Assembly (NCBI GenBank): GCA_964394185.1
Contig: CAYMWM010000001.1
Span: forward strand, 2,233 to 66,232
Direction: 5' to 3'
DNA from: an uncultured Smithella sp.
Lineage (GTDB): Bacteria; Desulfobacterota; Syntrophia; Syntrophales; Smithellaceae
DNA: 64,000 bases
Position 1 is the first letter of the stretch; each line of letters starts with the position of its first letter. The notes beneath the pieces are model-generated. The model saw only the letters and a list, made by a program, of their open reading frames with translations. It had not been told where the DNA came from and made no database searches. Both the position numbers and the translations under genes were made by a program. Shown one piece after another: positions 12,426 to 64,000 of the stretch.

Positions 12426-12452
12426 AATATTCCTTTCCCGTAGGATAACTTA

Positions 12453-13496
12453 TTAAACAACTTCGGCAGCATGTCTCGGTGCTCTTCTCAAACTTCTGAT
12501 AAGAAACTGTTCCATGTTTTTTTGAGTTAATTCTCCTTCCAGATTTTTTTTCAATACATCCAGAGGAATTTCCATGCGCGCGGCGCTTCTGTGTCCCCCG
12601 CCCTTGCCGATTGCTCCAAACGCTCTTTGCGCAATCTCGCCGCAGTTCTGCCGGTAGCCATCGCCGCGAAATATAATGATAAGCTTATTTCCGGCAATTC
12701 CCGCCACAACAACATAATAAGTGCCGATTAAATGCAGATAAAAATCGGCAATCTGTACACAGACATCAGCACTCTCCACGCTTCCCAGAAAGCAAACTCG
12801 TCTGCCGCGAAAATTTTTCATGTTATGAAAACAGGAGTTAAAGTATTTCAAAAAACGGCCGGGAGTCTGATTAAGTTCGATACGGCGGATCAGCTGCATA
12901 TTGGCGTATTTGGTGTGATAGGAATAGGCTTTGATATCATCGTCAAGTGTGGCGCGGTCAAAATTATCAGTATCCGTCTTAATTCCATAAAGAAGAGCCG
13001 TGTGCAGGTTACGGGGAATTTTGATGCGGGAACATAGCAAATATTCCGTCAGGACGGTGGACAACGCGCCGTAATGGGGACGGACGTCTTCCAGAGGCGC
13101 CGACCATTTGCCCTGGCGCGGATGATGATCCAAAACAATCTGCGGCTTTAAATAACTTAAGGCTTTGCCGAAGAAGGAAGGCTGGGCGTCTAGAAGCGCA
13201 ATCAAACGGTATGCATGAATATCGACCTGACTGATTAAAGGAATATAAAGATGGAGGGATGAAACAAATTCAATGTTTTGCTGACGGATTAAAGGTTCTG
13301 TGGAAACAAAAACGCTTTTTGAGAGACCTTTTCTTTTTCGGATAATCTCGCGCAGAGCCAGAGCCGAAGCAATGGCATCGGGATCGGGGCTTCCATACAT
13401 CAGCAGCAGTAAAGAATCATCAGGCCGGGCGATGTCCATCAGCCTTTGAAAATTCTGATAGGTCTCTTTTCTGATTGCAATAGATTCTGAATTCAT
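12453..13496 (-). CDS. DHH/DHHA1 phosphoesterase (NrnA-like)
   Basis: GSPDPDAIASA, VLDHHP and GKGGGHRSAA motifs. Confidence 0.75.
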   Translation of the reverse strand: MNSESIAIRKETYQNFQRLMDIARPDDSLLLLMYGSPDPDAIASALALREIIRKRKGLSKSVFVSTEPLIRQQNIEFVSSLHLYIPLISQVDIHAYRLIALLDAQPSFFGKALSYLKPQIVLDHHPRQGKWSAPLEDVRPHYGALSTVLTEYLLCSRIKIPRNLHTALLYGIKTDTDNFDRATLDDDIKAYSYHTKYANMQLIRRIELNQTPGRFLKYFNSCFHNMKNFRGRRVCFLGSVESADVCVQIADFYLHLIGTYYVVVAGIAGNKLIIIFRGDGYRQNCGEIAQRAFGAIGKGGGHRSAARMEIPLDVLKKNLEGELTQKNMEQFLIRSLRRAPRHAAEVV

Positions 13497-13532
13497 GGTT
13501 TCGGCGTTAACGAAACCGCCCGCGATATCTCC

Positions 13533-14585
13533 TTAGTAAACTATAATTTTACCGGCATGATCCCCAACGACTTCTCCGATAATCGTGGCGGCAGCAATTT
13601 CGGAGGTACGCATCTTTTCGACGAGATTTTGCGCCTTATCGCCGGGCAAACTGAAAAACAAACCTCCGGCTGTTTGCGGATCGAAGAGAACATCAAAAAG
13701 CCATTCCGGGCAAGTTTCTTCCCTGGTGACTTTTTTGATGCGGAAATTCCTGTTGCGGTAAAGTCCGCCGGGAACAAAACCGGTTTCCATCAATTCCCGC
13801 ACCCCTTCAAAAACGGGCACAGCTCTTGAATTGATCCGCAGGCCGACATTACTGTTCTCTACCATTTCAAAGGCGTGTCCTATCAGACCAAAACCCGTTA
13901 TATCGGTGCAGGCGTGAATATCACCTGCCTCAATCATGATCTCTGATGCTTTCTTATTCAAAGCGGTCATTGCGTCAATGGCCTGCTTCATTTGTCCGGG
14001 AGATGATTCGCCGGCTTTAATGGCGGTACTGATAATACCTGTACCCAGAGGTTTTGTTAATATGATTTTATCTCCCGCTCTTGCGCCGCGGTTAAACAAT
14101 ACTTTATCGGGATGAATTATACCCGTCACGGAAAGCCCGTATTTTATTTCGTTATCCTCAACGCTGTGTCCGCCGATGAGTAAAGCGCTGGCTTCGCGCA
14201 TTTTATTCAGGCCGCCCTGCAAAACTTCCCGCAAAACCGAAATATCCATAGTTTTGATGGGAAAGCAGACGATATTCATTGCGGTCAGAGGTTTCGCGCC
14301 CATGGCGTAAATATCATTGAGCGCGTTGACGGCGGCAATCTGACCGAAGGTAAAGGGATCATCGACTGTGGGCGTAAAAAAATCGACCGTTTGAACCAGG
14401 GCGAGATCATCGGAAAGTTTATACACTCCCGCGTCTTCCGCGTGTTCGAATCCGGTTAGCAAATTCGGATCCTGAATCAGCGGCAAATCACGCATAATTT
14501 CAGAAAGGTCACCCGGACCTATCTTGCAGGCTCAACCCGCACTTTGCACTGTTTGCGTTAAGCGAACGACTTTTCTTTCTTCCAT
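13533..14585 (-). CDS. selD: Selenide, water dikinase containing selenocysteine (UGA codon 18)
   Basis: The track ORF (13533-14495) lacks the catalytic N-terminus. Extending in frame gives MEERKVVRLTQTVQSAG-U-ACKIGPGDLSEI, with TGA at 14534-14532 aligned to Cys17 of E. coli SelD (GAGCGCKISP). Confidence 0.9.
14502..14524 (-). promoter_or_regulatory. SECIS-like hairpin downstream of the selD UGA
   Basis: mRNA AGAUAGGUC-CGGGU-GACCUUUCU (core AGGUC/GACCU at 14506-14520), starting about 8-11 nt 3' of the UGA. Confidence 0.55.
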
Positions 14586-14798
14586 TTATTCCTCTGTTAA
14601 TCTTTGAAAATGAGGCCCTCTAAACAAGGAGATATATTAATAAGTATAGGAAGAACAGGGCTATAAGTCAATAACGAATACAAATCTTAAAGCAAGTAAG
14701 GGGATTTGATTCAATCATTTTTTCATAATGTGGTATTGAAGAAAAAACGAATTTGATTTAGTATCTACCATTATATTTTAACGTGATAAGTTTCAGGA

Positions 14799-15008
14799 TT
14801 GGATACCGATAAAAAATTATTTTTAGGAGTGGTATCGAAAATGGGTATAAAAAAGAAAATAAACAAGGCAATGTTTAAGATAATTACCAAAACGCTTCCC
14901 TTGATTCAATACTGGCCATTTAAGTACTTTGCTCCTGTTATCAGTAAACTGGCAAACTGGTATATAGAAAAGAAATTCCCGACACCCAAAGGGCAAACAC
15001 CGTCATAA
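14799..15008 (+). CDS. Small hypothetical protein (weak call)
   Basis: 69-aa AT-rich ORF in an otherwise empty intergenic region. No motif recognised. Confidence 0.2.
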   Translation: MDTDKKLFLGVVSKMGIKKKINKAMFKIITKTLPLIQYWPFKYFAPVISKLANWYIEKKFPTPKGQTPS

Positions 15009-49770: not shown

Positions 49771-49855
49771 AAGCAAGCGGGGTGTTTGCGGAAAATTCGG
49801 GAGATAATATATTAAAAATTCAACATCATAAAAAAATTTGGGAGGAGGGGCAAAT

Positions 49856-51574
49856 ATGTACGAACAAAAACCTTGGTTGAAGTTTTATCAGCATGTTCCG
49901 CATAACATAGATTATCCTCGTGTTACCATGTATGAGGCGTTAAAAAAAACAGCGGATCAAAATCCCGATTCCATCGCCTATGATTTTCTCGGTTACACAT
50001 CCACCTATCGCAAATTCATGTCGGAAATTGATCACTGCGCGGACGCTCTCAACGCGCTGGGCCTCAAAAAAGGCGAGAAAATAACCATCTCCATGCCGAC
50101 CTCACCGCAGGGCATCATCTGTTTTTACGCCGCCAATAAACTCGGCGCAGTCAGCAGTATGATTCATCCCCTTTCCACAGCCAAAGAGATTGAATTTTAT
50201 CTGAATGTGGCCAAAAGCCGCTTTGCGCTGACACTGGACGCTTTCTACGCCAAATTCAAGGAAGCTAAAAATTCCACGCCGCTGGAGACTCTGATTCTTG
50301 CCCGGATTCCCGATTATCTGAATCTTTTCAAAAAAATCGGCTTTAATCTGACCAAAGGCCGCCAAATTCCCAAAGTACCACCCGACCCCATGGTCAAGTG
50401 GTGGGCTGATCTTATGAAAGGCAGCTATGCCAATGCGCCCCATGTCCAAATGGATACCGATGATCTGGCCGTTATTCTTTACAGCGGCGGAACAACCGGA
50501 GTTCCCAAAGGCATTATGCTTTCCAATATGAATTTCATCAGTGAAGGGATGCAGGTTTCCGCTTGGGGCAAACTTTCCAGCGCCGATTCCATCCTGGCCA
50601 TTTTACCGATATTTCACGGTTTCGGACTGGGTGTTTGTGTTAATGCCTGCTTCATGGGAGGAGGCAAAAGTATTCTGGTGCCTCAATTTACTCCGGAAAC
50701 CGTTGCTGACCTGATCAGTACGAAAAAACCTTCCTTTGTCATTGGTGTTCCCACTCTCTTTGATGCTCTGAGCCGCAGTCCCAAAATGCAGAAAGCGGAT
50801 TTGAGCTGCCTGCGGGCGACTTTTTCCGGCGCCGATTCGCTGCCCTGCACGGTCAAAGAGCGGTTTGAAGAAATGGTCAAGAAACAAGGCGGCGGTGTGC
50901 AACTGCTGGAAGGATACGGCCTGACCGAGGCGGTCACGGCAATCATGGCCATGCCGCTGGGTCATTACCGGCAAGGAAGTATCGGTATCCCTTTTCCGGA
51001 TATGCTGGCAAAGATTGTTACGCTGGACACGACCGATGAAGCGCCACTGGGTGAAGAGGGAGAAATTTGTGTTTCCGGTCCGGCGGTGATGATGGGTTAT
51101 CTGGAGCACCCAGAGGAAACAGCTGAAACGCTCAAAAAACATGCCGATGGCCGCATCTGGCTGCATACCGGTGATATCGGGACAATGGATCAGGACGGCT
51201 TTTTCCATTTCAAACTGCGGCAAAAGCGCATGATTAAATCATCCGGCATGAATGTCTATCCCGCGCAGGTGGAGGAGCTTCTCTACAAGCATCCGAAAGT
51301 GCGTGATGCCTGCGTTATCGGTGTGCCCGATGAGGCGCAGGTTCAGGTAGTGAAAGGTTTTGTCGTCCTGAAGAATCCGGCAGACGCCGGCGCTGAAACA
51401 CAGAAGGAATTGATTAATTATTGCCGTGAGCATTTGATCAAATGGAGCTGTCCGCGTTCCATTGAATTCAGGGATGACCTGCCCAAAACACTGGTTGGCA
51501 AAATAGCTTTCAATGTTCTCGAAAAAGAGGAAATTGAAAAACTGAAAAAAGAGGGAAAATATTCGGGAAATTAA
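49856..51574 (+). CDS. AMP-dependent acyl/aryl-CoA (or -ACP) ligase
   Basis: ATG 49856 after GGAGGAGGGG. YSGGTTGVPKG, GYGLTE, TGDIG..DQDGF and a C-terminal VGK. Confidence 0.85.
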   Translation: MYEQKPWLKFYQHVPHNIDYPRVTMYEALKKTADQNPDSIAYDFLGYTSTYRKFMSEIDHCADALNALGLKKGEKITISMPTSPQGIICFYAANKLGAVSSMIHPLSTAKEIEFYLNVAKSRFALTLDAFYAKFKEAKNSTPLETLILARIPDYLNLFKKIGFNLTKGRQIPKVPPDPMVKWWADLMKGSYANAPHVQMDTDDLAVILYSGGTTGVPKGIMLSNMNFISEGMQVSAWGKLSSADSILAILPIFHGFGLGVCVNACFMGGGKSILVPQFTPETVADLISTKKPSFVIGVPTLFDALSRSPKMQKADLSCLRATFSGADSLPCTVKERFEEMVKKQGGGVQLLEGYGLTEAVTAIMAMPLGHYRQGSIGIPFPDMLAKIVTLDTTDEAPLGEEGEICVSGPAVMMGYLEHPEETAETLKKHADGRIWLHTGDIGTMDQDGFFHFKLRQKRMIKSSGMNVYPAQVEELLYKHPKVRDACVIGVPDEAQVQVVKGFVVLKNPADAGAETQKELINYCREHLIKWSCPRSIEFRDDLPKTLVGKIAFNVLEKEEIEKLKKEGKYSGN

Positions 51575-51601
51575 CTATTAAGTGAATATTTTCATTAATT
51601 T

Positions 51602-52480
51602 ATGAACAAGATGCCTTATAATATACTGCTTTATTCAACCCGGTGGTTGGGTCTGTGGTTTTTTCGCATTTTTTCCTGGTTTATCGCCACCGGATACTTT
51701 TTTCTTTTCCCGGTGCGCGTGGCCAACAGCTTTGAATTCTACCGCACCCTGTTTCCCCGGCACGGGTTTTTCTATCATCTCTGGTGCGCGTGGAAGCAGT
51801 ATCATAAATTTACCGATGTCTATATTCATCGTTTCGTTCACCTTGATGACGAAGATATCGAATATGTAAAAGAAGGATGGGAATATCTGGAAGAAGCCGT
51901 GCAGAAAAAGACGGGCGCCATTTTATTGATGTCTCATATCGGCAACTGGGAACTGGCCGCGCAAACGCTGAACAAAAAAGGCCTGCCGATTATGCTTTAT
52001 CTGGGCGCCAAACACAAAGAGCAGATTGAGCATATTCAAAAACAGCTTCTGGCGAAAAGTGGCATCAGGGTTGTGGTGACATCCGAAGATGAAAAATCTC
52101 CTTTCGCTTTAATAGAAAGTATCAATTTCCTGCGTGAAGGCGGTATTGTTTCCATGACCGGCGATCGCCTCTGGGGCGAGCAGAGTTACGTCACGGTGAA
52201 TTTCCTGGGTCATGAAGTCAATCTGCCGGATACGCCGCATTTGTTTGCCCTGATGACCGGTGCGCCTTTGATGACTTTTTTTGTGTATCAGGAAGCCATC
52301 GGGAAATATCATATCAAGGTTTCGAAAGGCCGTAGAGTGTTCGCGGCAACCCGCGCAGACAGAAAAAGGGCTGTGCAGGAATCAGCACAGGCCTATGCAC
52401 AAGACCTGTCACTGTTTGCCCGCGAACATCCTTTCGAGTGGCATCATTTCGAACCGTTTTTAGGGAAGAAAATAAGTTAA
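51602..52480 (+). CDS. LpxL/HtrB-family (lysophospholipid/lipid A type) acyltransferase
   Basis: N-terminal TM helix, then LLMSHIGNWELAAQ (HxxxxE/D acyltransferase motif). Confidence 0.7.
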   Translation: MNKMPYNILLYSTRWLGLWFFRIFSWFIATGYFFLFPVRVANSFEFYRTLFPRHGFFYHLWCAWKQYHKFTDVYIHRFVHLDDEDIEYVKEGWEYLEEAVQKKTGAILLMSHIGNWELAAQTLNKKGLPIMLYLGAKHKEQIEHIQKQLLAKSGIRVVVTSEDEKSPFALIESINFLREGGIVSMTGDRLWGEQSYVTVNFLGHEVNLPDTPHLFALMTGAPLMTFFVYQEAIGKYHIKVSKGRRVFAATRADRKRAVQESAQAYAQDLSLFAREHPFEWHHFEPFLGKKIS

Positions 52481-52662
52481 AGCAGGGTTCATGTTCCGCT
52501 TGGATCCGTTTAGAAGATCCTTCATTCTGAGCGTTTCCGGATAAGGCATCCGGTGCAGCAACCGGTAACGCAGGGTTCATTAAAAAGACCTTTTCGCTTT
52601 ATTAAATTTAGTATAAGAAATGAATCTGAATAGATACTTTATTATGATAGGTAGGGCTGTCC

Positions 52663-53064
52663 ATGAAGGTAGGAGAAGTTCCACAGGATAATACTATTGA
52701 ATATTATGAAGGGATAAAACGCGCCTGTTATGCGGTCAATGATGAAGGGAAGTATGTCATTGTGCCAAGCAACGGCTGGAGCGAGGAGGAATTTATCAAT
52801 CGCATGGCCGTTAATGAGCTGGCTGTTAATCTGGAGAAAACCAGAAAAGCCGTGCTTGCCGGGGAAAAAAGTTCTCTCGCTTATCATATGGAGCGGCGGC
52901 AGATGACCCCGGATATTCTAGGTAAAACAGCCGGTATTGCCGTATTTCGGGTAAAAAGGCATTGCCGGCCGGAAATTTTCGCAACACTCAAAGATTCTGT
53001 TCTGGATCTTTACGCAAAAGCTCTCGCTATGACTATAGACGAATTAAAAAACGTACCTCAATAA
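52663..53064 (+). CDS. Hypothetical protein with a possible C-terminal HTH
   Basis: 133 aa. MTPDILGKTAGIAVFRVKRH resembles an XRE-type helix-turn-helix. Confidence 0.4.
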   Translation: MKVGEVPQDNTIEYYEGIKRACYAVNDEGKYVIVPSNGWSEEEFINRMAVNELAVNLEKTRKAVLAGEKSSLAYHMERRQMTPDILGKTAGIAVFRVKRHCRPEIFATLKDSVLDLYAKALAMTIDELKNVPQ

Positions 53065-53085
53065 TACACAAGAAAGGATTTATTA

Positions 53086-54123
53086 TTGACAACTTCAGAA
53101 ATAACATCAGCCGGTAAACCTTTTGTTCATTATCATGCCGCTCACTGCGAAACCGGCGTTACTGCCGCCTTATTGCGTGACAGGGGACTGGATATCAGCG
53201 AAGCAATGATTTTCGGCATCGGCAGTGGCGTTTTTTTCGGCCATTTTCCTTTTGTAAAAGTGATGGGTCTTCCCATTACAACCTATCGTATTCAGCCGGC
53301 AGCCATTTTTCGTAAAGCGGCCAAAAGACTGGGGTGGAAATTTGTCACACAACGTTTTCGTAATGCGCAGAAGGGTATGGACGAACTGAAGCGCGTGCTC
53401 GGATCCGGTCAGATTGTGGGAGTAACCACAAACATCTACTGGCTTTCCTATATTCCCAATCGTTTCCGTTTTCAATTCAACGGCCACAATATTGTTGTTT
53501 TACGCGAGATCGGAGGCGGCTTTCGCGTAAGCGACCCTGTTCTGGCCGATCCGGTGGATTGTTCAGAGGAAGACCTAATCAGGGCGCGTTTCGCACGTGG
53601 CCCCCTGGAGCCTCATGGATTTATGTATTATCCGTTATCTTTTAATCTTAATCCCGATTTACATAGAGCCTCTCTGGAAGGAATGCTTGATACCTGCAAT
53701 ATGATGCTTAGAATTCCTTTGCCGATTATCGGTATGCGCGCCATTCGATTTCTGGCAAAAAGAGTTATTAAATTCGAACATACATATGGGTTTGAGGAGG
53801 GCTGCAGGCAGTTGGGAACAATTGTTCGCATGCAGGAGGAAGTTGGCACTGGTGGCGCCGGATTCCGCTATATGTATGCTGCTTTTTTACAGGAAGCTGC
53901 GGAACTGTTTGGTTCCGACCAACTTCGCGAGTTATCCCGGGAAATGACAGCCATCGGTGATATCTGGCGCGAATTTGCCGTTACGTCCGCACGTATTATA
54001 AAAAAGAGAGGAAACCATGACGCGACCTTTGCCAAGGCCGGCGGACTCATGTTGATTTGCGCCGGTCGGGAGGAAGAACTTTTTAAAAACCTGCGGGACG
54101 TCGCGGGTCAACTGAAATCATGA
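53086..54123 (+). CDS. BtrH-N-like (papain/C39-like fold) plus DUF4872-like protein
   Basis: TTG start after AAAGGA. FVHYHAAHCETGVTAALL N-terminal Cys motif as I recall for BtrH-like proteins. Family assignment from memory. Confidence 0.55.
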   Translation: MTTSEITSAGKPFVHYHAAHCETGVTAALLRDRGLDISEAMIFGIGSGVFFGHFPFVKVMGLPITTYRIQPAAIFRKAAKRLGWKFVTQRFRNAQKGMDELKRVLGSGQIVGVTTNIYWLSYIPNRFRFQFNGHNIVVLREIGGGFRVSDPVLADPVDCSEEDLIRARFARGPLEPHGFMYYPLSFNLNPDLHRASLEGMLDTCNMMLRIPLPIIGMRAIRFLAKRVIKFEHTYGFEEGCRQLGTIVRMQEEVGTGGAGFRYMYAAFLQEAAELFGSDQLRELSREMTAIGDIWREFAVTSARIIKKRGNHDATFAKAGGLMLICAGREEELFKNLRDVAGQLKS

Positions 54124-54863
54124 AAGCGCTGGAAATTTCGCAAATAACTTTTTCCTATGATCGGGCGGTTGATAAATCGTCAGGTGGAGAAATCGAATAC
54201 GCCCTGCGTGATTTTTCCATGTCGGTGGAGGCAGGCGAGATTCATGCGCTTTTGGGACCTAACGGCGCGGGCAAGACCACTCTGATGCGCCTGATAACCG
54301 GACAGTTACGGAGTTATTCGGGTAGCATATTTATCCATGGCAGCAAAAACGATTCCAAAGAAGCTTTAAATTACATAGGTTATGCTCCTCAGCCGGTATC
54401 AGTGTACACATCATTAACGGCGCAGGAGAACCTGCACGTTTTCGGCGTTATGGCCGGGTTGTTCCAGGAAAATCTGGAAGAAAGGTCAAAAGCTGTTCTG
54501 GAAGAAACGGGACTATTTCCTTACGCGCAAAAAAGGGCATCAAGCTATTCCGGCGGGATGCTGCGCCGCCTGAATCTTGCCGTGGCGCTTTTGCATTCAC
54601 CAAGGCTTTTGCTTCTGGATGAACCGACGGTGGGTGTCGACCCGCAGAGCCGAAACAATATTTATGAAACGCTCAATAAATTGAATGCCGATGGCATAGC
54701 AATTGTCCTGTGCACTCATATTATGGAAGAAGCACAGCGCATGTGCTCTAAAGTGACGTTGCTGGATAGAGGGTCTGTAATTTTTGCCGGCGATATGAGC
54801 GAAATCGATAATCTGGAAAAATTCTTCCTGGAGCATACAGGGCGGGGATTGCGTGACGATTAA
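54120..54863 (+). CDS. ABC transporter ATP-binding protein
   Basis: GPNGAGKTT (Walker A), YSGGMLRRL (signature), LLLLDEP (Walker B). ATGA overlap with the upstream gene. Confidence 0.9.
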
Positions 54864-54919
54864 GATTAACTTAAAACATTACTTGAAATTGATGAGCATT
54901 TTTTTGGGGCAATAAATTA

Positions 54920-56038
54920 ATGTTCAGAAAATTAATGGAACTCATTCGCAAAGAGATGCTGGTTTTGTTGCGCGGACGCCAGACCATCCCAATTTTATTT
55001 ATCATGCCCATGGCGCTTATCTTCTTTCTGTCTCTGGCATTGCAGGGTGTTTATACGGAAAAAGTAACCGGTCAGCAGATCCCCGTTGTCATCGAAGTTA
55101 CCGGTAATTCTCCCAAGTCGATATTGCTGGCAAAGAAATTAAGCGAACACAAATTAATTAAGCGCGTCCAGCGGCCACAGGGTTTGAGCAACGATAAGCT
55201 TTTTGAATCCGGCAGGGCGCATGTGGTAATTTATATACCGGATGGATTTGGCGAAGGGACAAAACCTGTGGAAGTGGAATATGATCCCGTTCTTGACGCT
55301 GGTTACAAAGCCGCCGCCCGTTCGCTCATTACCAGTCTGACTGCCGGCGTGGTTATGGGCATCGATGATATCGAAGCCCTGTCTGCCGGTTTTATTGTTG
55401 AGAAAACAAAACACAATAAAAGTTATCCCAGCCCGCTTCAGCACACGGTGCCCGGCTGGTCAATTTTCGCGATGTTTTTTATCGCCATTCCCATGTCCGG
55501 CGGATTTCTTCGGGAAAAAAACGACGGCACTCTGCAACGGATTTTCACCTATCCGGTTGATACCGGCACCGTTATACTGGGAAAACTTGTTCCTTATTAT
55601 TTGATTAATTTGATTCAGTTTGCTTTAATGCTTATGGTCGGCGTCTATATTATGCCATTATTTATTAAAATTCCCTTCTCCCTGGGAGCGCATCCGTGGC
55701 ATATTATTCCGGTAACGCTTGCCGTCGCGGCTGCTTCCACAGGATTCGGCGTGCTGGTGGCGTCAACAGCGCGCTCTCCGGAACAGTCTTCCGCTCTGGC
55801 GGCAACAGGTTCGGTGTTGATGGCAGTATTCGGCGGAATCATGGTGCCGCATGTGGTTATGCCGCTCATCATGAAAAAACTGGCGATGATATCGCCCATG
55901 TTCTGGGCGCAGCAGGCTTATCTGGATATTTTTGTACGCGATGCTGATTTTAGTTCTATTTTACCGAAGCTGGTCATCTTAACATTTTTTGCGCTTATCT
56001 GTTTTTATATAGCTGGGAGGAAAGTAAAATGGATGTAA
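54920..56038 (+). CDS. ABC-2-type transporter permease
   Basis: 372 aa. N-terminal TM helix, large loop, then five C-terminal TM helices, typical of the ABC-2 family. Confidence 0.8.
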   Translation: MFRKLMELIRKEMLVLLRGRQTIPILFIMPMALIFFLSLALQGVYTEKVTGQQIPVVIEVTGNSPKSILLAKKLSEHKLIKRVQRPQGLSNDKLFESGRAHVVIYIPDGFGEGTKPVEVEYDPVLDAGYKAAARSLITSLTAGVVMGIDDIEALSAGFIVEKTKHNKSYPSPLQHTVPGWSIFAMFFIAIPMSGGFLREKNDGTLQRIFTYPVDTGTVILGKLVPYYLINLIQFALMLMVGVYIMPLFIKIPFSLGAHPWHIIPVTLAVAAASTGFGVLVASTARSPEQSSALAATGSVLMAVFGGIMVPHVVMPLIMKKLAMISPMFWAQQAYLDIFVRDADFSSILPKLVILTFFALICFYIAGRKVKWM

Positions 56039-56340
56039 ATCAAAGTTTAAAAGAGTTGAACGTGTCTTCTCGGGACGAATTAATTTTCAAGCTCAAAGAG
56101 TTGATAATAAGAGCATGTGAAGTGACGGACGTAAAACCGGAAGATGTTCCTACCGATGTTCCCTTTATCGGCGGTTCCGGACCTCTGATGCTTGATAGTC
56201 TCGACGCGATGGAAATTGCCATGGAGATAAGGCATGTATTTGGCGTGGAATTGAAGAACGCCTCGACAGCCGCCAAAGCAATGCAATCATTTGATACGCT
56301 GGCCGATTTTATTATCAGTGCTCCGAAGGTTAAAAAATGA
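56029..56340 (+). CDS. Acyl carrier protein (second, divergent)
   Basis: LMLDSLDAMEIAMEI Ser attachment context. Its start overlaps the permease stop by 10 nt. Confidence 0.75.
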   Translation: MDVNQSLKELNVSSRDELIFKLKELIIRACEVTDVKPEDVPTDVPFIGGSGPLMLDSLDAMEIAMEIRHVFGVELKNASTAAKAMQSFDTLADFIISAPKVKK

Positions 56341-57500
56341 ACAACAAAGAAATTTATGTGCGCGGTTGGGGCGCTGTAAATTCATTGGGATGGGATTCTC
56401 AGAAATCCGCCCGCAATTTGATTGCGGGAAATGTTCTGCCAGCCAAGAAATGTAGCTCCTCTCATTTAACTAATAACGATTTAAAAGCTTTTGAGGTAAC
56501 CTATTCGGGAAACCCTCTGGATAAATCAATGGCAATGCTGGAGCGCGCTCTGGAAGAAGCCTTCCAGCGGGGAAAAATGTCGATTCAAGAAATTACGGAG
56601 TCCAGCATACTGGTGGGAACAACAGGCGGCCTGTTTATCCGTAACGAGCATGAATTTACCAAAGCCGTACACGAAAATCCTGATCAGGAATCACCGGCCA
56701 TCTCCTGCCGCAACCGGGGCCCGGGTGAAGTAGCCGACTTTATTGTCAATAAATACGGCATCAGGGGTATTGCTCTGACTTTTAGCATGGCCTGTGTATC
56801 AAGTTCTCACGCTTTGGTAGTTGCCGCCGATATCCTGAATCAGGGGAAAGCTAAACGGGTGATTATCGTTGGTTTTGAGCCGCTGCTGAATATGACCCTG
56901 CAAGGATTTTCGAGCCTTCTTCTTTTCGATTACGATCAATGCCGGCCGTTTTGTGCGACACGTGCCGGAATGCAAATTGGAGAGGGCGCTGCCGTTATCA
57001 TTCTTGAGGCAGGAACCTTTTCCGAAGCAAAATATAAATTTACGGGCGGCTATCTGTACAACGATATAAAAAGCCTTACATCCGCGGGCATTGACGGATT
57101 AACTGTCAGCGAGGTCGTCGGACAAACCCTGATGTTGGCGCAGGTATCAGCCGATGATGTTGTCGCTATCAAGGCGCACGGCACGGGCACAAGAGATAAT
57201 GACCTGTCGGAGGGCAGGGGGTTAACCAAGGTTTTTGGAGCAAAACTGCCTCCCGTGGTTTCTCTCAAAGGCTCTGTAGGCCATACCCTAGGCGCGGCAG
57301 GAGCGGTGGAAACTGCGCTTTGGCTTTCCTGCTTAGGAGAAGGATTTATTCCGCGAAGCTTTGGTTTTTCACAAATCGATCCGGAAATCGGCTTTACACC
57401 GTCACAGGTAAACATTAAAGCGCGCGAAGGCGCTTATTTATTTACATTCTTCGGTTTTGGCGGAACCTGTACGAGTTATTTAATTATCAAGGAGAGATAA
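56337..57500 (+). CDS. Beta-ketoacyl synthase (second KS)
   Basis: FSMACVSSSHAL (Cys), IKAHGTGTRDND (His). ATGA overlap with the ACP stop. Confidence 0.8.
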   Translation: MNNKEIYVRGWGAVNSLGWDSQKSARNLIAGNVLPAKKCSSSHLTNNDLKAFEVTYSGNPLDKSMAMLERALEEAFQRGKMSIQEITESSILVGTTGGLFIRNEHEFTKAVHENPDQESPAISCRNRGPGEVADFIVNKYGIRGIALTFSMACVSSSHALVVAADILNQGKAKRVIIVGFEPLLNMTLQGFSSLLLFDYDQCRPFCATRAGMQIGEGAAVIILEAGTFSEAKYKFTGGYLYNDIKSLTSAGIDGLTVSEVVGQTLMLAQVSADDVVAIKAHGTGTRDNDLSEGRGLTKVFGAKLPPVVSLKGSVGHTLGAAGAVETALWLSCLGEGFIPRSFGFSQIDPEIGFTPSQVNIKAREGAYLFTFFGFGGTCTSYLIIKER

Positions 57501-57504
57501 TAAA

Positions 57505-58488
57505 TTGTCTTCATTCCTGAATCAATCAAACCCCGATGCATTTATGCCGGTCATCGCCGCAAGTTATATTGGTCCGCATCTTATACCGAATAACGACGCG
57601 CTTTGGGAAGAAAGTGAACTGCCGCTCAATGCCGACGGATTGGTCAATGAAATCATGGGACAGCCGATGCGTAGGGCCGGACGATTTATCAAGATGGTTG
57701 CCTGCGGAGGGCTGGCCTGTCTGCAGCAAGTATCTCTCAATTACTTAAAAGGAAAAAAGACAGGAATATTCCTGGCGACAGGCCTGGGTAATATTGATGA
57801 AATCATGCCCTTTATAACTGAGGTGTTCAAGCATGGTGGCGGATTTCCGAGCCCTAATCAATTCGCCAATTCGGTCAGCAATGCCGCGGCATTTGTTTTG
57901 GCCAAAATTTGCGAAGTCACGGGGAACGTTCTGACCATTTCTCAGGAAGAATTTTCTTTTGAAGCGGCCCTCTGGATGGCGCAGAGCTATCTTCAAAGCG
58001 GTCAAATAGAATTGGCCCTGGTCGGCGGATGCGATATTTTTACACCAACCGTTGAAGAATACCGTGAACGGGTCAATCTGACATGCAGCAACGCCCGCAA
58101 GATGCCGATGGGTGAAGGCAGCTCCTGGCTCCTGCTGGGGAAAGATGAAGTTAAGAATATTGGTAAAATTATGGTGGTGGATTTTGACGATAATGTTATT
58201 GAACCTCCCGACCTTTCAGACAATAAAAATATTGTATCGATTTTGATCGAGCCAAACAGCCCAAACCCGATTTTTCTACCTGGATTTCGCATGAAAAGTA
58301 AAGAAATCAACTTCTGGAAAGAAAAAGGTTGGGAGGTAGAAGATTACTTGCCCTGCTGCGGAATTCATTCGACGGCGGCGGCGTTCGGTATAGCGCGCGC
58401 CCTGCGGGAAAAATCAAATTCTCTTTTCGTTCACTATAATTGTCACGCTTCAGGCAGGCGGGCGTTTGTTCTAGCGTCAAAAAAATAA
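57505..58488 (+). CDS. Cys-less KS-like partner with Gln at the active-site position (KS-Q/CLF-like)
   Basis: TTG start after GGAGAG. NVLTISQEEFSFEAAL aligns with the T-x-A-C-x-S KS motif, placing Gln at the Cys position. Shorter (327 aa). Confidence 0.65.
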   Translation: MSSFLNQSNPDAFMPVIAASYIGPHLIPNNDALWEESELPLNADGLVNEIMGQPMRRAGRFIKMVACGGLACLQQVSLNYLKGKKTGIFLATGLGNIDEIMPFITEVFKHGGGFPSPNQFANSVSNAAAFVLAKICEVTGNVLTISQEEFSFEAALWMAQSYLQSGQIELALVGGCDIFTPTVEEYRERVNLTCSNARKMPMGEGSSWLLLGKDEVKNIGKIMVVDFDDNVIEPPDLSDNKNIVSILIEPNSPNPIFLPGFRMKSKEINFWKEKGWEVEDYLPCCGIHSTAAAFGIARALREKSNSLFVHYNCHASGRRAFVLASKK

Positions 58489-58490
58489 TT

Positions 58491-59939
58491 ATGGTTTCCT
58501 CTCAACAAAAAAAAAGAGTCGTTCTTGTTCATCCGCGAGGATTCAACTGGTTTCCGGGGAAGCGCGATATTACAGATATTGCCAACCGGATGGTGCCGCA
58601 GGGACTGCTTTCGCTTGCCTCATATCTTGCAGCGCAGGGTCATGATGTTTTCGTCTATGATTGTCTTGGACCGGACGCTCCCCTGGATTTACAAAAACAG
58701 GCGCAGGCGATTTTGGCCTATAACCCTCAGATTGTCGGGTTTTCGGCAACAACATCGTCTTTTCCCGATGCCGCCGAGCTTGCCCAAATCATTAAAAATA
58801 GTTCTTCTGACATCAAAACACTATGCGGCGGGGTCCACGTTTCCGCACTGGAAAAAATTCTTTTGCAGGACTATCCCGCATTTGATTTTCTTGCCGCCGG
58901 AGAAGGCGAGGAAACCATAGCCGAGCTTGCCGAAGGATGTGATCCTGCTGCAATCAAAGGTCTTATCTGGCGGAGAAAAGAAGAAATCGTAGCCAACGAG
59001 CCGCGTCTCAAAATACCGGATTTGGATTTTCTGCCGTTTCCTGCCTATGAAAAGCTTAAAGGATTTCCCCGTGATTACCATCTGCCGCTGTTCAGTTATA
59101 TCCAGGCACCCGGCGCGACGATGATAACCTCACGCGGCTGTATGTATCAATGCTCCTATTGCGATCGTTCCGTGTTCAAAAAAGGTTTTCGCTATAATTC
59201 CGCCGCCTACATTTATGAGCATATGAAATATTTGCGGGAAAAATTCGGGGTCAGGCACATCAACATTTACGATGATTTGTTCACCGCCAACCGCGAACGG
59301 ATTGTCGAGCTTGGCGAAAAACTCAGCCGCTATCCCCTGGGGATTCATTTCAACTGCGCGGTCCGTGTCGGTTACACCGATGATGACTTGTTGAAAATGC
59401 TGAAAGATGCCGGCTGCCTGATGGTGTCTCTTGGAATTGAATCCGCCGATCCGGATATGCTCAAGCGGCATAAATCGGGAGTGTCTCTTGATGAGGTACG
59501 CGATACCGTGCGGAGGATTCAAAAAGCGGGATTGCGTGTCAAGGGACTTTTTATGATGGGACTGCCGGGCGAAACGGAAGAATCCGTCAAGCAAACATCC
59601 AATTTTATTATTTCACTCGGACTGGATGATATGAACATGGCCAAATTTACGCCTTTCCCCGGCGCGCCGCTGTGGGGTACGATAAAAGACGACGGGTCAT
59701 TTAATGAAGACTGGCGGCTGATGAATTGTCTGAATTTTGTTTTTGTGCCCAGAGGAATTGCTTCCAAGGAAAGACTCGATCAACTCTATAATGAACATGT
59801 GAAGCGTTTTTATTCCGACAAAGCGTGGCGGGAAAGATTCCGCAAGCGCATCTGGCAGCACCGCAGAAGTCTGATTTATTTACTAAGACACCTGCCTTCC
59901 TTCTGGTCTGCAAAAAATCAGTTCGAACCTGAAAAATAA
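58491..59939 (+). CDS. B12-binding-domain radical SAM enzyme (class B), copy 2
   Basis: ATG 58491 (MVSSQQKK), 3 nt after the upstream stop. Cobalamin-binding-type N-domain, then TSRGCMYQCSYCDRS (Cx3Cx2C). Confidence 0.85.
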   Translation: MVSSQQKKRVVLVHPRGFNWFPGKRDITDIANRMVPQGLLSLASYLAAQGHDVFVYDCLGPDAPLDLQKQAQAILAYNPQIVGFSATTSSFPDAAELAQIIKNSSSDIKTLCGGVHVSALEKILLQDYPAFDFLAAGEGEETIAELAEGCDPAAIKGLIWRRKEEIVANEPRLKIPDLDFLPFPAYEKLKGFPRDYHLPLFSYIQAPGATMITSRGCMYQCSYCDRSVFKKGFRYNSAAYIYEHMKYLREKFGVRHINIYDDLFTANRERIVELGEKLSRYPLGIHFNCAVRVGYTDDDLLKMLKDAGCLMVSLGIESADPDMLKRHKSGVSLDEVRDTVRRIQKAGLRVKGLFMMGLPGETEESVKQTSNFIISLGLDDMNMAKFTPFPGAPLWGTIKDDGSFNEDWRLMNCLNFVFVPRGIASKERLDQLYNEHVKRFYSDKAWRERFRKRIWQHRRSLIYLLRHLPSFWSAKNQFEPEK

Positions 59940-60015: not shown

Positions 60016-60092
60016 GCCCCTGTAGCTCAGTAGGATAGAGCAACGGATTCCTAATCCGTGTGCCGCGCGTTCGACTCGCGCCAGGGGCACCA
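60016..60092 (+). tRNA. tRNA-Arg (anticodon CCT), CCA encoded
   Basis: Perfect cloverleaf: acceptor GCCCCTG/CAGGGGC, D arm GCTC/GAGC, anticodon arm ACGGA-TTCCTAA-TCCGT, T arm GCGCG-TTCGACT-CGCGC, discriminator A, CCA. Confidence 0.92.
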
Positions 60093-60220
60093 AAGAAAAT
60101 CAACTACTTATGCAACATTAAGTTTCTTCCCAAAATCGTTTTTGCTAACCTATAGCTAACATGACATTTTATAATGTGCTTTATAATAGAGATAGCTGTT
60201 AAAGATCATTGACAGCGAAT

Positions 60221-60817
60221 AGTAGAGCTACATCTACCATCACCCACCACGAGTAGCTAATTCCCCTCCAACCAGTCTAACACCTATACTACGCATCTCC
60301 GCCGGCAGCAACAGTAGCAACTTTTAGCAATTCAGATAGAAAAAATGGAAACAGTATCAGATGTCCGTTGGAGTAGTATCGTCAGCCAGCAGAGTCACCC
60401 TACTCCTGTCAGCAGTAGTACCATTTTTCTACTGTGATCAAACGGGTTTTACAGGTAGTGTCAACAGTAGCCTGAAGTAACTATTCAGTAGCTTCAAATA
60501 AAATTCAGTCAGCTTTAAAAATCCATCCGTATCCCAATTTGAAATTTTCATGTAAAAATGGTATGTTACTCACGGTTCACAGTAGAGAGAAATGCTTTTC
60601 CCTCCATCCATCTAAAATTCTCTCTACGTAAACTTCCTTTCTTATGGTGACTTATCCACCCCTCCCCATTGCTTTAGGACATGAGGCCTCCGATAAGTGG
60701 AGCCTCTTTTGTTATTGTATTGGCGTTACGTCGGGAAGCTATTCTGATAGTAGCAATCAGTAGAAGGGTACAGTAGCTGTGAGTGGCTTACTTGGCGATT
60801 ATCTGGAGCCAGAGTAG
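60221..60817 (+). repeat. Cluster of about 13 same-strand AGTAG(C) motifs in an ORF-free region
   Basis: AGTAG at about 60221, 60252, 60313, 60372, 60414, 60466, 60487, 60581, 60749, 60759, 60772, 60813, plus GGTAG at 60454. Seven extend to AGTAGC. Two inverted copies (CTACT at 60400 and 60429) form hairpins with upstream copies. Confidence 0.6.
60575..60713 (+). ncRNA. Candidate ~140-nt small RNA (promoter- and terminator-bounded, C/U-rich)
   Basis: Promoter TTGAAA (60539-44), 17 nt spacer, TATGTT (60562-67). Terminator GAGGCCTCC-gataagt-GGAGCCTC plus TTTTGTT (60683-60713). Body contains CCCTCC (60600) and CCACCCCTCCCC (60656). No ORF. Confidence 0.3.
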
Positions 60818-61001
60818 CTGTGGTTCAACTATGATCACAGGACTTAAAGCACTATACAGCGTCAACAGTATTATTAAATTTCAGTAATGTTCATGCTGTA
60901 ACAATGGGTATCATATCTTTATCAGGTTAATAATTTCTATTTTAAAGTTATTTTTAAACAATTACATATTGTATAAAAATAATAATTATTTTTATAAATC
61001 A

Positions 61002-61030
61002 TTGACATACAAGATTGTTTTTCTTATACT
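61002..61030 (+). promoter_or_regulatory. Near-consensus sigma70 promoter upstream of the SNF2 helicase gene
   Basis: TTGACA (61002-07), 17 nt spacer, TATACT (61025-30). Preceded by a very AT-rich stretch with the near-palindrome AAAAATAATAATTATTTTT. Confidence 0.45.
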
Positions 61031-61100
61031 CCCTCGCGATACAAGCAATATCTTATCAAAAAACAAGTTGAGAAAATCCGAATAATGTCAGGGGTCTTTT

Positions 61101-64000
61101 ATGTTGATTGATCAACTTAAACCGAACATCATTGTCAAAGGTCCGATATTCCCCGAACCTGTTCAGATTATTGTCTCTATACCCATGGGTGATTCTGTCA
61201 AACTCGTCGGTAAAGGTCTCAAAAGCCAAAAAGTATATGAGCCAATTCTTAATGCTGATCAGCTTGCAAAGCTAGAAGCCACCCCCGAGAAAGAGCCTTT
61301 TGATGGTGACGCTGCAAAATTCCGTCTTGGCGTTGAAGCATTGCGGCTTGGGCTTGCTTACGAATATGACCCATACTTTTCCCTCTCTATTGCTAGGGTT
61401 GATCCTCTTCCTCACCAGCTTGAAGCAGTTTATGATTACTTTTTAAAGCTTCCTCGCATTCGTTTCCTGCTTGCCGATGATCCAGGTGCTGGCAAAACGA
61501 TTATGGCAGGACTTCTTATTAAGGAATTAAAGATACGCGGACTTGTAAAACGTATCTTGATTGTCACACCGGCTAATCTTTCTTTCCAATGGCAACGTGA
61601 AATGAAGGATAAATTCCGTGAGCAGTTTGCCATCATTAAAGGTGACATACTTCGTGCAAATTACGGTTCAAATCCTTGGCAGGAGATGAATCAGGTCATA
61701 ACTTCAATCTCTTGGGTTTCACGTATTGATGATGCAAAAGACAGTCTGCTTCGCAGCCAGTGGGATTTAATTATTGTTGATGAAGCTCATAAGATGAGTG
61801 CTTACAGTTCAGACAAAAAAACCTTAGCATATCAGTTGGGTGAATCTCTTTCTCAAATGACTGACCACTATCTTTTAATGACCGCCACGCCACATAAGGG
61901 TGATCCCGAAAATTTCTGTCTCTTTCTTGAACTTCTGGATAAAGATGTTTATGGCGATATTAAGAGCCTTGAAGAAGCAATGGAACGACATGAAGCACCC
62001 TTTTACCTGCGCCGGATAAAAGAAGCGCTTGTTACCTTTCCAGATCCCGACACTGGTCAGGTTAAAATGCTTTTTACCAAACGCAAAGTACAGACAACAG
62101 AGTTTCAGATTGATGATGAAGAATGGGATTTTTACGACGCTCTTACAAGATACGTTGAAGATCAATCTATTAAAGCGGCTCAGGATGATTCAGCCCGCGG
62201 TCGTGCGGTTGGTTTTACAATGGCGATGCTTCAGCGCCGGTTTGCCTCCAGTATCTATGCTGTTCGCCGCAGTCTTGAGCGAATGAAGGAAAAACGTGAG
62301 CGTATTCTTGCTGACCCAGAATCTTACCGTCAGGAACAGATAAACAAAAAACTGCCGGAAGATTTTGAGGATCTACCTGAAGAAGAACAGCAAGAAATTA
62401 TTTCACAACTTGAGGATGTCGTTGCCTCAGTTGACCCCGCTGCTCTTCGAGAAGAAATTCTTCAACTTGGCAAACTTATTGAACAGGCACAAGAGCTAGA
62501 AAAACGTGAAATTGAATCCAAACTTATTAAACTTAAGGAAGTACTTACCGAGCAGGGTATTTTCAATGATCCCAAAATGAAACTGCTTATCTTCACCGAA
62601 CACAAAGATACGCTTGATTTTCTGGTGACAAAACTACGCGATTGGAAACTCAATGTTACGCAGATTCATGGCGCCATGAAAATTGGCGACAGAGATACGC
62701 CCGGCACAAGAATTTATGCTGAACGTGAGTTCCGGGAAGACAGCCAGTTGCTTGTTGCAACGGAGGCCGCTGGTGAAGGTATCAACCTTCAGTTTTGCTG
62801 GTTTATGATTAACTATGATATTCCCTGGAACCCTGTACGTCTTGAGCAACGAATGGGACGTATCCACCGCTATGGTCAGGAAAAAGACTGTCTCATCTTT
62901 AACTTTGTCACAACCAACACCCGTGAAGGCAGGGTACTTCAAAAACTGTTTGAACGCATGAAAAAGATTGAAGACGACCTTGATCCGCAACGTACAGGAA
63001 AAATATTTAATGTGCTTGGCGATGTATTTCCTGCCAATATGCTTGAGCGTATGCTGCGGGAAATGTATGCCCACAACCTCACGGAAGATGTCATTAAAAA
63101 TCGTATCATAAATGAAATTGACACAAATCGTTTTAAGCAAATTACAAACTCAACCCTTGAGGGCCTTGCCAAGAGAGAACTGAACCTTTCCGCGATTGTC
63201 GGAAAATCAGCAGAGGCTAAAGAACGCCGTCTTGTTCCAGAAGTAATCGAGGATTTTTTTACCAGCGCTGCACCGCATACAGGCGTTCATCCCAAAGAGG
63301 TTGCAAAAGAAAATCATGTTTACCGTATAGGACGTATTCCGCGCAATCTTTGGCAGATTGGCGAGCAACTTGAACCGCGTTTTGGAAAACTCGGCAGGGA
63401 ATATAAGCAAATAGTTTTTGATAAGAATTTGCTGACTGTTGACCCGACATTTGAATGGGTTACTCCGGGACACCCTCTTTTTGAGTGTGTGCGTGAGGAT
63501 ATTTCTGAACGGGTGCAACATGATTTAAAACAAGGTGCAATATTTTATGATCTCCATCAGAAGGAACCGTATAGGTTGGAAGTGTTTTCTGCGTCTATTT
63601 GTGATGGCAGAGGAAACGTGCTGCATGAAAAGCTCTTTGTCGTACAGACAGATATGAACGGAGTAATGAGCATTCGCCAGCCTACGATCTTTCTTGATTT
63701 GTCTTTGGCAACCGGAACAAATAAAATTCCCGATAGTAGCGGACTACCTCAGCGAGATGTTGTTGAACACACACTTATTCAAAAAGCATTAAATCCGCTT
63801 CTTGAGGAAGTACGCATACAGCGTGAAAAAGAAACTGAAATAATATCACTCCACATGGAAATAAGTCTTAATGAACTTATAAATCGTCAGAATCTTCGCA
63901 TGGCTGAACTACTTGAAGCTCAGCAGAATGGTGATACGAGCCAGCCTCTTGCTGCAAATATCAAAATAACCGAAGACCGCATTTTTGAGCTAAACGGACG
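61101..64000 (+). CDS. SNF2-family (DEAH) helicase, first ~966 codons (3' end beyond window)
   Basis: Absent from the ORF track because it has no stop in the window. Motifs: LLADDPGAGKT (I), IIVDEAHK (II), LLMTATPHKG (III), LVATEAAGEGINLQ (V), WNPVRLEQRMGRIHRYGQ (VI). Frame checked against the line positions of antisense ORF 61436-61648. Confidence 0.85.
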   Translation, partial: MLIDQLKPNIIVKGPIFPEPVQIIVSIPMGDSVKLVGKGLKSQKVYEPILNADQLAKLEATPEKEPFDGDAAKFRLGVEALRLGLAYEYDPYFSLSIARVDPLPHQLEAVYDYFLKLPRIRFLLADDPGAGKTIMAGLLIKELKIRGLVKRILIVTPANLSFQWQREMKDKFREQFAIIKGDILRANYGSNPWQEMNQVITSISWVSRIDDAKDSLLRSQWDLIIVDEAHKMSAYSSDKKTLAYQLGESLSQMTDHYLLMTATPHKGDPENFCLFLELLDKDVYGDIKSLEEAMERHEAPFYLRRIKEALVTFPDPDTGQVKMLFTKRKVQTTEFQIDDEEWDFYDALTRYVEDQSIKAAQDDSARGRAVGFTMAMLQRRFASSIYAVRRSLERMKEKRERILADPESYRQEQINKKLPEDFEDLPEEEQQEIISQLEDVVASVDPAALREEILQLGKLIEQAQELEKREIESKLIKLKEVLTEQGIFNDPKMKLLIFTEHKDTLDFLVTKLRDWKLNVTQIHGAMKIGDRDTPGTRIYAEREFREDSQLLVATEAAGEGINLQFCWFMINYDIPWNPVRLEQRMGRIHRYGQEKDCLIFNFVTTNTREGRVLQKLFERMKKIEDDLDPQRTGKIFNVLGDVFPANMLERMLREMYAHNLTEDVIKNRIINEIDTNRFKQITNSTLEGLAKRELNLSAIVGKSAEAKERRLVPEVIEDFFTSAAPHTGVHPKEVAKENHVYRIGRIPRNLWQIGEQLEPRFGKLGREYKQIVFDKNLLTVDPTFEWVTPGHPLFECVREDISERVQHDLKQGAIFYDLHQKEPYRLEVFSASICDGRGNVLHEKLFVVQTDMNGVMSIRQPTIFLDLSLATGTNKIPDSSGLPQRDVVEHTLIQKALNPLLEEVRIQREKETEIISLHMEISLNELINRQNLRMAELLEAQQNGDTSQPLAANIKITEDRIFELNG

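Follow-up and report, generated by a model that had tools for sequence, protein, structure and literature searches.

The stretch of DNA analysed here (the window) comprises 64,000 nucleotides (nt) of a contig from an uncultured Smithella sp. (CAYMWM010000001.1). Just after its tRNA-Arg(CCT) gene, in about 0.6 kb of non-coding DNA, the pentamer AGTAG is repeated twelve times in a single orientation. This array lies between a junction resembling a left attachment site (attL) and the boundary of a predicted helicase-methylase-ATPase (Hma) defence cassette. The core of the copies is maintained, no protein is encoded here and no relatives were detected in the collections searched. It is statistically extreme and matches no described family. 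We tentatively read it, at rather less than an even chance, as a set of short-iteron-like protein-binding sites which would act at the DNA level and belong to an integrated element, the cognate protein being encoded beyond the window or lost. An earlier note on this DNA had proposed a binding-site array in an integrated element. In this generic form the proposal survives as the best explanation, whereas three of its specific candidates, i.e. a structured long non-coding RNA, an arm-type recombination array and a regulator of the downstream helicase system, find no support.

The perfect copies start at positions 60221, 60252, 60313, 60372, 60414, 60466, 60487, 60581, 60749, 60759, 60772 and 60813 of the plus strand. 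The count of 12 AGTAG between 60221 and 60817 thus agrees with that of the earlier note, as do the seven extensions to AGTAGC and the one GGTAG variant, at 60454. Two of its figures need correction: successive perfect copies are 10–168 nt apart, start to start, instead of 3 to about 150 nt, and only three perfect copies, instead of four, make up the tight cluster at 60749–60776. By subtype there are seven AGTAGC, seven CAGTAG and four CAGTAGC, and alignment of the copies yields (a)(a)C-AGTAG-C as consensus, about 9 bp carrying all the information. Both inverted copies, the only ones in the region, were confirmed as well, and each can form a hairpin with a neighbouring plus-strand copy (Table 1).

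The background was estimated from 2.3 Mb of related Smithella DNA, both strands. Per 600 nt and per strand it contains 0.146 AGTAG and 0.036 AGTAGC, the pentamer being about 4-fold under-represented (observed/expected 0.24). Relative to this DNA the array is enriched about 80-fold for AGTAG and about 190-fold for AGTAGC, and the Poisson probability of 12 copies in 631 nt is about 3e-19. The over-representation reported earlier is therefore genuine, and AGTAGC is far rarer in related DNA, not equally frequent there. The rest of the 64-kb window has 18 AGTAG, both strands summed, a depletion comparable to that of the relatives and nothing special; neither AGTAG nor CTACT occurs between 60818 and 63734. 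Across 171 related loci (2.2 Mb) the densest other 600-nt stretch holds at most five copies. On the plus strand of the region 12 perfect copies stand against 11 with one mismatch (one-mismatch background about 5), and on the minus strand 2 against 13. Since perfect copies outnumber one-mismatch copies on the array strand, the core is maintained and under constraint, its decay having hardly begun.

The spacing of the copies suggests that most of them are whole helical turns apart and hence face the same side of the duplex. Nine consecutive copies, from 60372 to 60813 (441 bp), have phases of 0.57–0.81 of a 10.5-bp turn, i.e. within 0.24 turn. When the period T was scanned from 10.2 to 10.8, a run of at least nine copies within a quarter turn was obtained in 0.45% of random placements (Monte Carlo, p ~0.005). 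The Rayleigh test on all 12 copies gives p = 0.044 at T = 10.5, and five of the seven independent variants (60454, 60476, 60560, 60867 and 60907) share the phase of the main group.

According to the reading we favour, the array would act in cis within a mobile element that has integrated at tRNA-Arg(CCT). At least 12 copies (about 17 with the variants) of a 7–9-bp site, aaCAGTAGC, in the same orientation and mostly on one face of the duplex, would be loaded side by side by a DNA-binding protein specific for this sequence, whose gene may lie elsewhere in the element or have been lost. Such a short-iteron-type platform could serve replication initiation, copy control or titration, or silencing, as in integrated satellites and islands. 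Action at the DNA level, the binding of a protein and the outcome of this binding are all what we infer. Besides the enrichment, several observations speak for this reading, as does the precedent of very short iterons in the origins of staphylococcal pathogenicity islands; that coding is excluded and a display of the motifs in RNA disfavoured (both below) also counts in its favour. The information content of about 9 bp is the size of a single DNA-binding domain footprint. The copies are oriented, maintained in their core and partly in helical phase. Lastly, the context is that of an integrated element at a tRNA hotspot, with a site of integration host factor (IHF) type and an island-specific repeat pair; this context is itself supported by the sister islands at the same tRNA, which carry integrases (L017 and L007; related loci are numbered with an L) or an AlpA-like protein together with a D5 primase-helicase (L025).

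Several observations weigh against this reading. The phasing is suggestive only, because the statistic was devised after the spacings had been seen; about 0.4 turn separates the first three copies from the phase of the others, and a scan of periods without restriction (T from 5 to 20) is not significant (p = 0.43). The gaps, of 1–16 turns over 0.6 kb, are much looser than those of classical iteron, partition or recombination directionality factor (RDF) arrays. No gene for a cognate binding protein lies between the tRNA and the Hma cassette. As a single instance without homologue in the collections searched, the array has no evolutionary support for a function. Finally, a C>G skew, three CCCTCC words, a terminator-like hairpin and a small-RNA-like module, all on the same strand, would also fit a transcript.

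Table 1. Features of the region between the tRNA gene and the Hma cassette (positions in the window).
Feature	Position	Strand	Basis or remark
tRNA-Arg(CCT)	60016..60092	+	ARAGORN; Rfam tRNA, 68 bits
IHF-type site, consensus WATCAANNNNTTR (AATCAACTACTTA)	60098..60110	+	exact consensus match, directly after the tRNA
Direct-repeat pair GCTAAC	60144-60149 and 60155-60160	+	11 bp start-to-start
AGTAG array	60221..60817	+	12 perfect copies, single orientation
Weaker variants (RGTAD)	60353..60911	+	at 60353, 60454, 60476, 60560, 60867, 60883 and 60907
Inverted copies (the only two)	60400..60434	-	CTACTCC (60400-06) pairs with 60370-76; CTACTG (60429-34) pairs with 60413-18
Small-RNA-like module	60539..60715	+	promoter-like site, hairpin, C-rich stretch, terminator-like hairpin
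AT-rich stretch with palindromes	60880..61000	.	82% A+T; between array and Hma promoter
Perfect 12-nt palindrome arms	60972-60983 and 60985-60996
Left edge of Hma cassette	60985..61100	+	predicted sigma-70 promoter 61002-61030 (TTGACA-17-TATACT) and 5' untranslated region; alignment of relatives
hmaA, SNF2/ResIII helicase	61101..64000	+	PADLOC HmaA, 3e-172; Pfam; runs past the window end

The region is non-coding. That no open reading frame of 60 codons or more exists between 60094 and 61100 was confirmed, each of the six frames containing 17–29 stops. Pfam recognised no domain in the six frames, the six-frame pseudo-protein had no match at E <= 10 among 5.8 billion proteins, and tblastn with all the proteins of the sister islands found nothing in the region. 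A coding repeat or pseudogene was therefore rejected: the TAG triplets embedded in the copies are spread over the three frames (4/3/5), as already noticed, stops occur throughout and protein similarity is absent. The AGTAG-dense stretches found in viral contigs by a degenerate three-motif scan are, unlike the array, all frame-locked coding repeats.

Relatives of the region were equally lacking. With blastn at word size 7, 60093–61100 has no homologue in 80 loci compared from the tRNA side or in 80 + 9 loci compared from the Hma side. The PLSDB plasmids and the INPHARED phages, both searched in distant mode, contain no relatives of the region, nor did three exact-word scans of viral contigs retrieve relatives of the array. 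A k-mer scan of the sister islands detected no comparable array built on another word. Tandem repeats, classical iterons and clustered regularly interspaced short palindromic repeats (CRISPR) were discarded because Tandem Repeats Finder reports no unit at a score >= 30. A DnaA-box cluster or origin was discarded as well, the single 8/9 box being at chance level. In the literature nothing relevant on AGUAG-binding factors was found.

The tRNA gene marks the beginning of strain-specific DNA. The earlier note had suggested comparing the same tRNA locus in related strains: in 22 related Smithella loci the similarity to the window stops exactly at the tRNA 3' end, and the DNA beyond differs in every genome. 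tRNA-Arg(CCT) is thus an integration hotspot, and its 3' end, the junction to the strain-specific DNA, is by these alignments the core of the integration site. Eleven otherwise unrelated islands at this tRNA, that of the window counted, begin with the signature A(A/T)ATCAA-N4-TTA, in which the columns ATCAA..TTA are invariant or nearly so at the same position. In the window this is the IHF-type site, at which binding of IHF is predicted from the known consensus. About 30 nt further on, each of the 11 islands contains two direct repeats of a word peculiar to it, spaced by about 11 bp, or one helical turn: GCTAAC in the window, AGCTCCCC twice in L025, CTACCCT twice in L012, TGTCCCCA twice in L024 and GTGATAA twice in L017. 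In the P' arm of lambda-type elements the order is core, IHF site, arm-type sites. By analogy, 60093–60200 would be an attL-like junction, and the GCTAAC pair probably represents putative integrase arm-type (P'-like) or RDF sites. The layout of the 11 islands looks like a common attL/P'-arm plan of an integrase family with differing arm specificities.

Tyrosine integrase genes adjoin the tRNA in the sister islands L017 and L007. The sister island L025, which has the same junction, encodes at 11619–14955 an AlpA-like excisionase or regulator, a small Zn-finger-like reading frame and a D5_N/DUF5906 primase-helicase; it looks like the architecture of a satellite of the P4 or phage-inducible chromosomal island (PICI) kind in a metagenome-assembled genome (MAG) of Smithella. 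In L003 the 3' half of the tRNA gene (3869–3945) recurs 2 kb on as a 46-nt repeat (5928–5973; 93% identity), and the segment in between is a mini-island still flanked by its attachment (att) repeats. The window itself contains neither an attR copy nor tRNA-derived fragments, and no integrase or RDF gene is present in the 3.9 kb of island that it covers. A degraded integrase gene at the expected position was considered and rejected, since neither tblastn with sister-island proteins nor six-frame Pfam revealed residual similarity.

This layout bears on one specific candidate, that the AGTAG copies extend the recombination site, as binding sites for the integrase N-domain or for an excisionase (RDF) that shape the attL intasome. 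The array does lie in the arm, next to an att core and an IHF-type site. Phased direct repeats are what RDFs such as Xis, Cox and Apl bind, and in the tight trio at 60749–60772 the spacings are 10 and 13 bp. The copy at 60252 also shares bases with a third TAGCTAA, a word present at the second GCTAAC repeat too. But the canonical arm position, beside the conserved IHF-like site, is already held by the two GCTAAC, as it is by their own pairs in the 10 sister islands. The AGTAG copies lie 129–725 bp from the core, whereas known att arms measure roughly 100–250 bp, well short of this reach. With no integrase or RDF gene in the island part of the window, and nothing comparable in the sister islands, an arm-type array is most improbable. 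The comparison with lambda-type attP/attL sites leads to the same point: an att core in the tRNA 3' end, an IHF-consensus site and direct repeats one helical turn apart are all there, but 60098–60160 already accounts for them, and AGTAG is a different word, more numerous and extending out to 725 bp.

On its other side the array is bounded by hmaA. PADLOC ranks HmaA as the best match of the product, ahead of DrmD, and full-length HmaA relatives have a C-terminal DUF3883 domain. A 100% identical protein of 1140 amino acids (P0001) is encoded on a 75.5-kb NCBI contig. In relatives at 96% identity (nine contigs) the gene belongs to a set comprising HmaA, HmaB (a DUF1156 adenine methylase) and HmaC; ahead of the set lies a beta-CASP gene, separated from it by 180 nt. 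The downstream helicase is thus, as far as homology tells, the HmaA of an Hma defence cassette. The left edge of the cassette is sharp: an alignment of four upstream regions, including those of L283, L083 and L087, places it 10–15 nt upstream of the -35 box of the strong predicted promoter, at ~60985–60990, and 60985–61100 is 92% identical to L083. Upstream of this edge the DNA differs in every locus, only the last ~110 nt before hmaA being common. The same cassette (94–96% amino-acid identity) is found in at least five differing genomic contexts. The gene content of the loci also varies, an AAA_15 ATPase (PADLOC HEC-04) being present between hmaA and hmaB in L083 (at 3938–5392), a relative with 94% identity, and missing from L284 (4937–4938) and eight siblings.

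Neither the AGTAG array nor any blastn similarity to 60093–60985 was found in the 80 + 9 Hma loci (73–96% amino-acid identity), and a k-mer scan of these 89 loci showed that no other word forms a similar array upstream of hmaA. The earlier note held that absence of the region where the helicase locus is conserved would count against it. This is what we find as regards a regulator of the helicase system: the cassette is conserved in 89 other loci and the array is in none of them. Because of this absence we consider that the array is neither a part nor a regulator of the Hma system.

The same loci speak to a second way of linking the array to the cassette, in which the HmaB (DUF1156) adenine methylase would have CAGTAG as its asymmetric target, or the word would tell the HmaA translocase where to load or in which direction to move; methylation state or translocation would then be coupled to expression of the operon. 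The array is indeed directly upstream of the hmaA promoter, and among the products of the Hma relatives is a DNA adenine methylase weakly similar to PglX. Being asymmetric, 6 bp long and with A as its fifth base, CAGTAG may follow the target pattern of PglX in bacteriophage exclusion (BREX) systems, and translocases such as FtsK are directed by oriented short motifs, the FtsK-orienting polar sequences (KOPS). Yet upstream of ~60990 nothing is common with the 89 Hma loci, even those 94–96% identical, these loci lack an analogous array of another word before hmaA, and the remainder of the window shows no special shortage of AGTAG when compared with the relatives. We regard a recognition-site cluster of the Hma system as very unlikely.

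The orphan state of the segment raises a different explanation, namely that the array is a functionless relic of an older, decayed element. It could for example have been an origin or regulatory region that lost its partner genes on arrival of the Hma cassette, too recently for the motifs to have degenerated. The segment is absent from the 80 tRNA-side loci, the 89 Hma-side loci and the plasmid, phage and viral collections, and no cognate gene is found from the tRNA to the Hma cassette. The hotspot turns over rapidly, as seen from the different DNA in every relative and the 2-kb mini-island of L003, and the cassette occurs in many unrelated contexts. Against a relic, perfect copies exceed degenerate ones, as expected if decay had hardly begun. 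Moreover a relic of an array still implies a former function, so that this explanation, which we judge possible but rather doubtful, concerns present activity and not the kind of element.

Reading the array as DNA-level binding sites must also be weighed against an RNA element. In this case the plus strand would be transcribed, by read-through from the tRNA-Arg gene, which no terminator follows, or from internal promoters, the transcript ending at 60683–60715. AGUAG and the three CCCUCC would serve as sponge or decoy for an RNA-binding protein, a small RNA or a ribonuclease, or as serial hairpin arms. Several features of the same strand are consistent with this, beginning with the strict bias of 12 copies versus 2. 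The small-RNA-like module starts with a promoter-like site at 60539–60567 (TTGAAA-17-TATGTT, TG-extended), followed by a perfect 10-bp hairpin at 60582–60627 (AGTAG at 60581 in the stem, CCCUCC in the 26-nt loop), the C-rich stretch CCACCCCUCCCC and a terminator-like hairpin at 60683–60706 with its T-run (to 60715). The 141 nt from 60574 to 60714 fold better than shuffled sequences (z = -2.59; 3 of 200 shuffles fold as well). CCCTCC, which looks like an anti-Shine-Dalgarno word, occurs on the plus strand at 60264, 60600 and 60660, three times within 400 nt versus 17 times in the remaining 127 kb, both strands. The plus strand of 60200–60620 is G-poor and A/C-rich (C>G skew). Four AGUAG copies form the 5' arms of local hairpins closed by GUAG/CUAC. 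Read as three A-R-N triplets, AAC-AGU-AGC presumably resembles the pattern bound by the distal face of Hfq.

Other results are difficult to reconcile with an RNA element. The Rfam search, a check proposed in the earlier note, returned the tRNA only, at the gathering threshold and at E <= 1. The fold of the whole region is no better than that of shuffles (60200–60715; z = -0.38 for the plus and -0.32 for the minus strand). These two results disagree with a structured long non-coding RNA, as had been put forward. No sigma-70-like promoter was detected between the tRNA and 60539, so that only the tRNA promoter lies ahead of the first eight copies, and the remaining four are 3' of the terminator-like hairpin. 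The 10.5-nt phase is meaningless for RNA, and the element is unconserved in relatives. In the predicted ensemble the AGUAG bases are mostly paired (unpaired probability 0.29 versus 0.51 for the other bases). Display of the motifs in RNA is disfavoured because of this pairing and of the four copies beyond the hairpin.

The sponge small RNAs (CsrB/RsmZ with GGA, CrcZ with A-rich Hfq/Crc motifs) are the closest known parallel on the RNA side. They likewise carry many short motifs on one strand, irregularly placed over several hundred nt, with a terminator-like hairpin downstream. In known sponge RNAs the motifs are exposed in loops or single strands and conserved across species. Those of the window, on the contrary, are predicted to be paired, match no Rfam family, are unconserved and in four cases lie beyond the terminator. 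Overall we consider an RNA element unlikely, though well worth keeping in mind.

At the DNA level the nearest likeness is with the origins of the staphylococcal pathogenicity islands (SaPIs) and other PICIs. SaPI origins consist of an AT-rich region and of 6–12 iterons, each a penta- or hexanucleotide, which Rep or Pri-Rep recognises through its winged-helix domain; the iterons are directly downstream of rep and flank the central AT-rich region, the two sides being oppositely oriented (PMC9371898). Like them the array would belong to a chromosomally integrated island, its 12 copies of a 5–7-nt core are within the range of 6–12 iterons, and an AT-rich stretch adjoins, the 82% A+T segment after the array. 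Unlike them it lies between tRNA-Arg and hmaA with no rep or primase gene adjacent, AT-rich DNA adjoins it on a single side, its copies have, with few exceptions, the same orientation, and it spans ~600 bp with gaps of 1–16 turns. The likeness is thus one of working in a similar way and not of membership, because two defining features fail: an adjacent rep, and a central AT-rich region between opposed iterons.

Classical iterons and partition centromeres (regular 17–22-bp units) share with the array direct repeats on one helical face and an AT-rich neighbour, but the array has no tandem unit, only ~9 bp conserved and irregular distances of 10–168 nt. The replication or partition iteron set that the earlier note also named may still be what the array is, though not by the classical definitions. 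A set of classical iterons exists on contig L140, which also encodes an Hma helicase: at 246–474 a 22-bp unit, CTTACTTCTCACGCACATAGTT, is present in 4 + 3 copies, and looks quite different from the array. Repeats of yet another type were seen in L109, where an intergenic region (885–1180), flanked by glcF-like and peroxiredoxin-like genes, contains about 14 oriented GCCGAG words, then 12 tandem CCTTGAA/CCTCGAA heptamers.

DnaA-box clusters and datA have irregular short sites over 0.5–1 kb of non-coding DNA, and translocase guides such as KOPS, the SpoIIIE recognition sequences (SRS) and the TraB clt motifs are strictly oriented. The word of the array is unrelated to DnaA boxes, however, and guide motifs are over-represented genome-wide, in contrast to the 4-fold under-represented AGTAG. 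These comparisons leave room for an undescribed cis-element, which we consider quite unlikely: a long (~50 helical turns), one-faced, single-orientation set of heptamers at the tRNA-proximal end of a defence island, which might nucleate a directional protein assembly (e.g. as a track on which a translocase such as HmaA loads or takes its orientation) or provide a titration or silencing platform controlling the island. Its mechanism would be unlike that of classical iterons, att arms or partition sites.

The DNA on both sides of the array deserves some further remarks. The AT-rich stretch contains nested palindromes at 60948–60996, among them the perfect 12-nt arms TATAAAAATAAT and ATTATTTTTATA, 1 nt apart. 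This stretch need not be an unwinding element, since the regions upstream of the same promoter elsewhere are also AT-rich. The 10-nt word ATCATTGACA occurs at 60205–60214, just ahead of the first AGTAG, and 793 bp away at 60998–61007, where it includes the -35 box of the hmaA promoter, and so brackets the array and the AT-rich stretch. This repeat may be due to chance or may be the footprint of a recombination or insertion event. An insertion with ATCATTGACA as target-site duplication was rejected, because within 1 kb a match of 10 nt is close to chance expectation and what recurs at 60998 is simply the conserved -35 region; terminal inverted repeats around the bracketed segment were not found.

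Upstream of the tRNA, a gene cluster conserved in Smithella (49838–59939) ends 77 nt ahead of it. It encodes an acyl-CoA ligase, a lipid-A-type acyltransferase, a BtrH_N/DUF4872 protein, an ABC transporter, an acyl carrier protein, two ketosynthase-like proteins and a B12-binding radical SAM enzyme, and looks like a specialised lipid or polyketide-like pathway. The B12-radical-SAM protein is 77–87% identical to proteins of Smithella and Smithellaceae MAGs, with conserved synteny, which places the host among the Smithella-like Syntrophales.

The clearest result of this analysis is negative: the array is neither part of the Hma system nor an att arm, corresponds to no known RNA and does not code for protein. 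At present its value is that of a flagged oddity, one unconserved instance. If it is functional, it would extend the very-short-iteron principle of the staphylococcal pathogenicity islands to an uncultured syntrophic deltaproteobacterium, with an unusual geometry, i.e. oriented copies with integer-turn spacing over 0.6 kb, and it would offer a handle on the replication or control of the tRNA-hotspot islands that carry defence cassettes.

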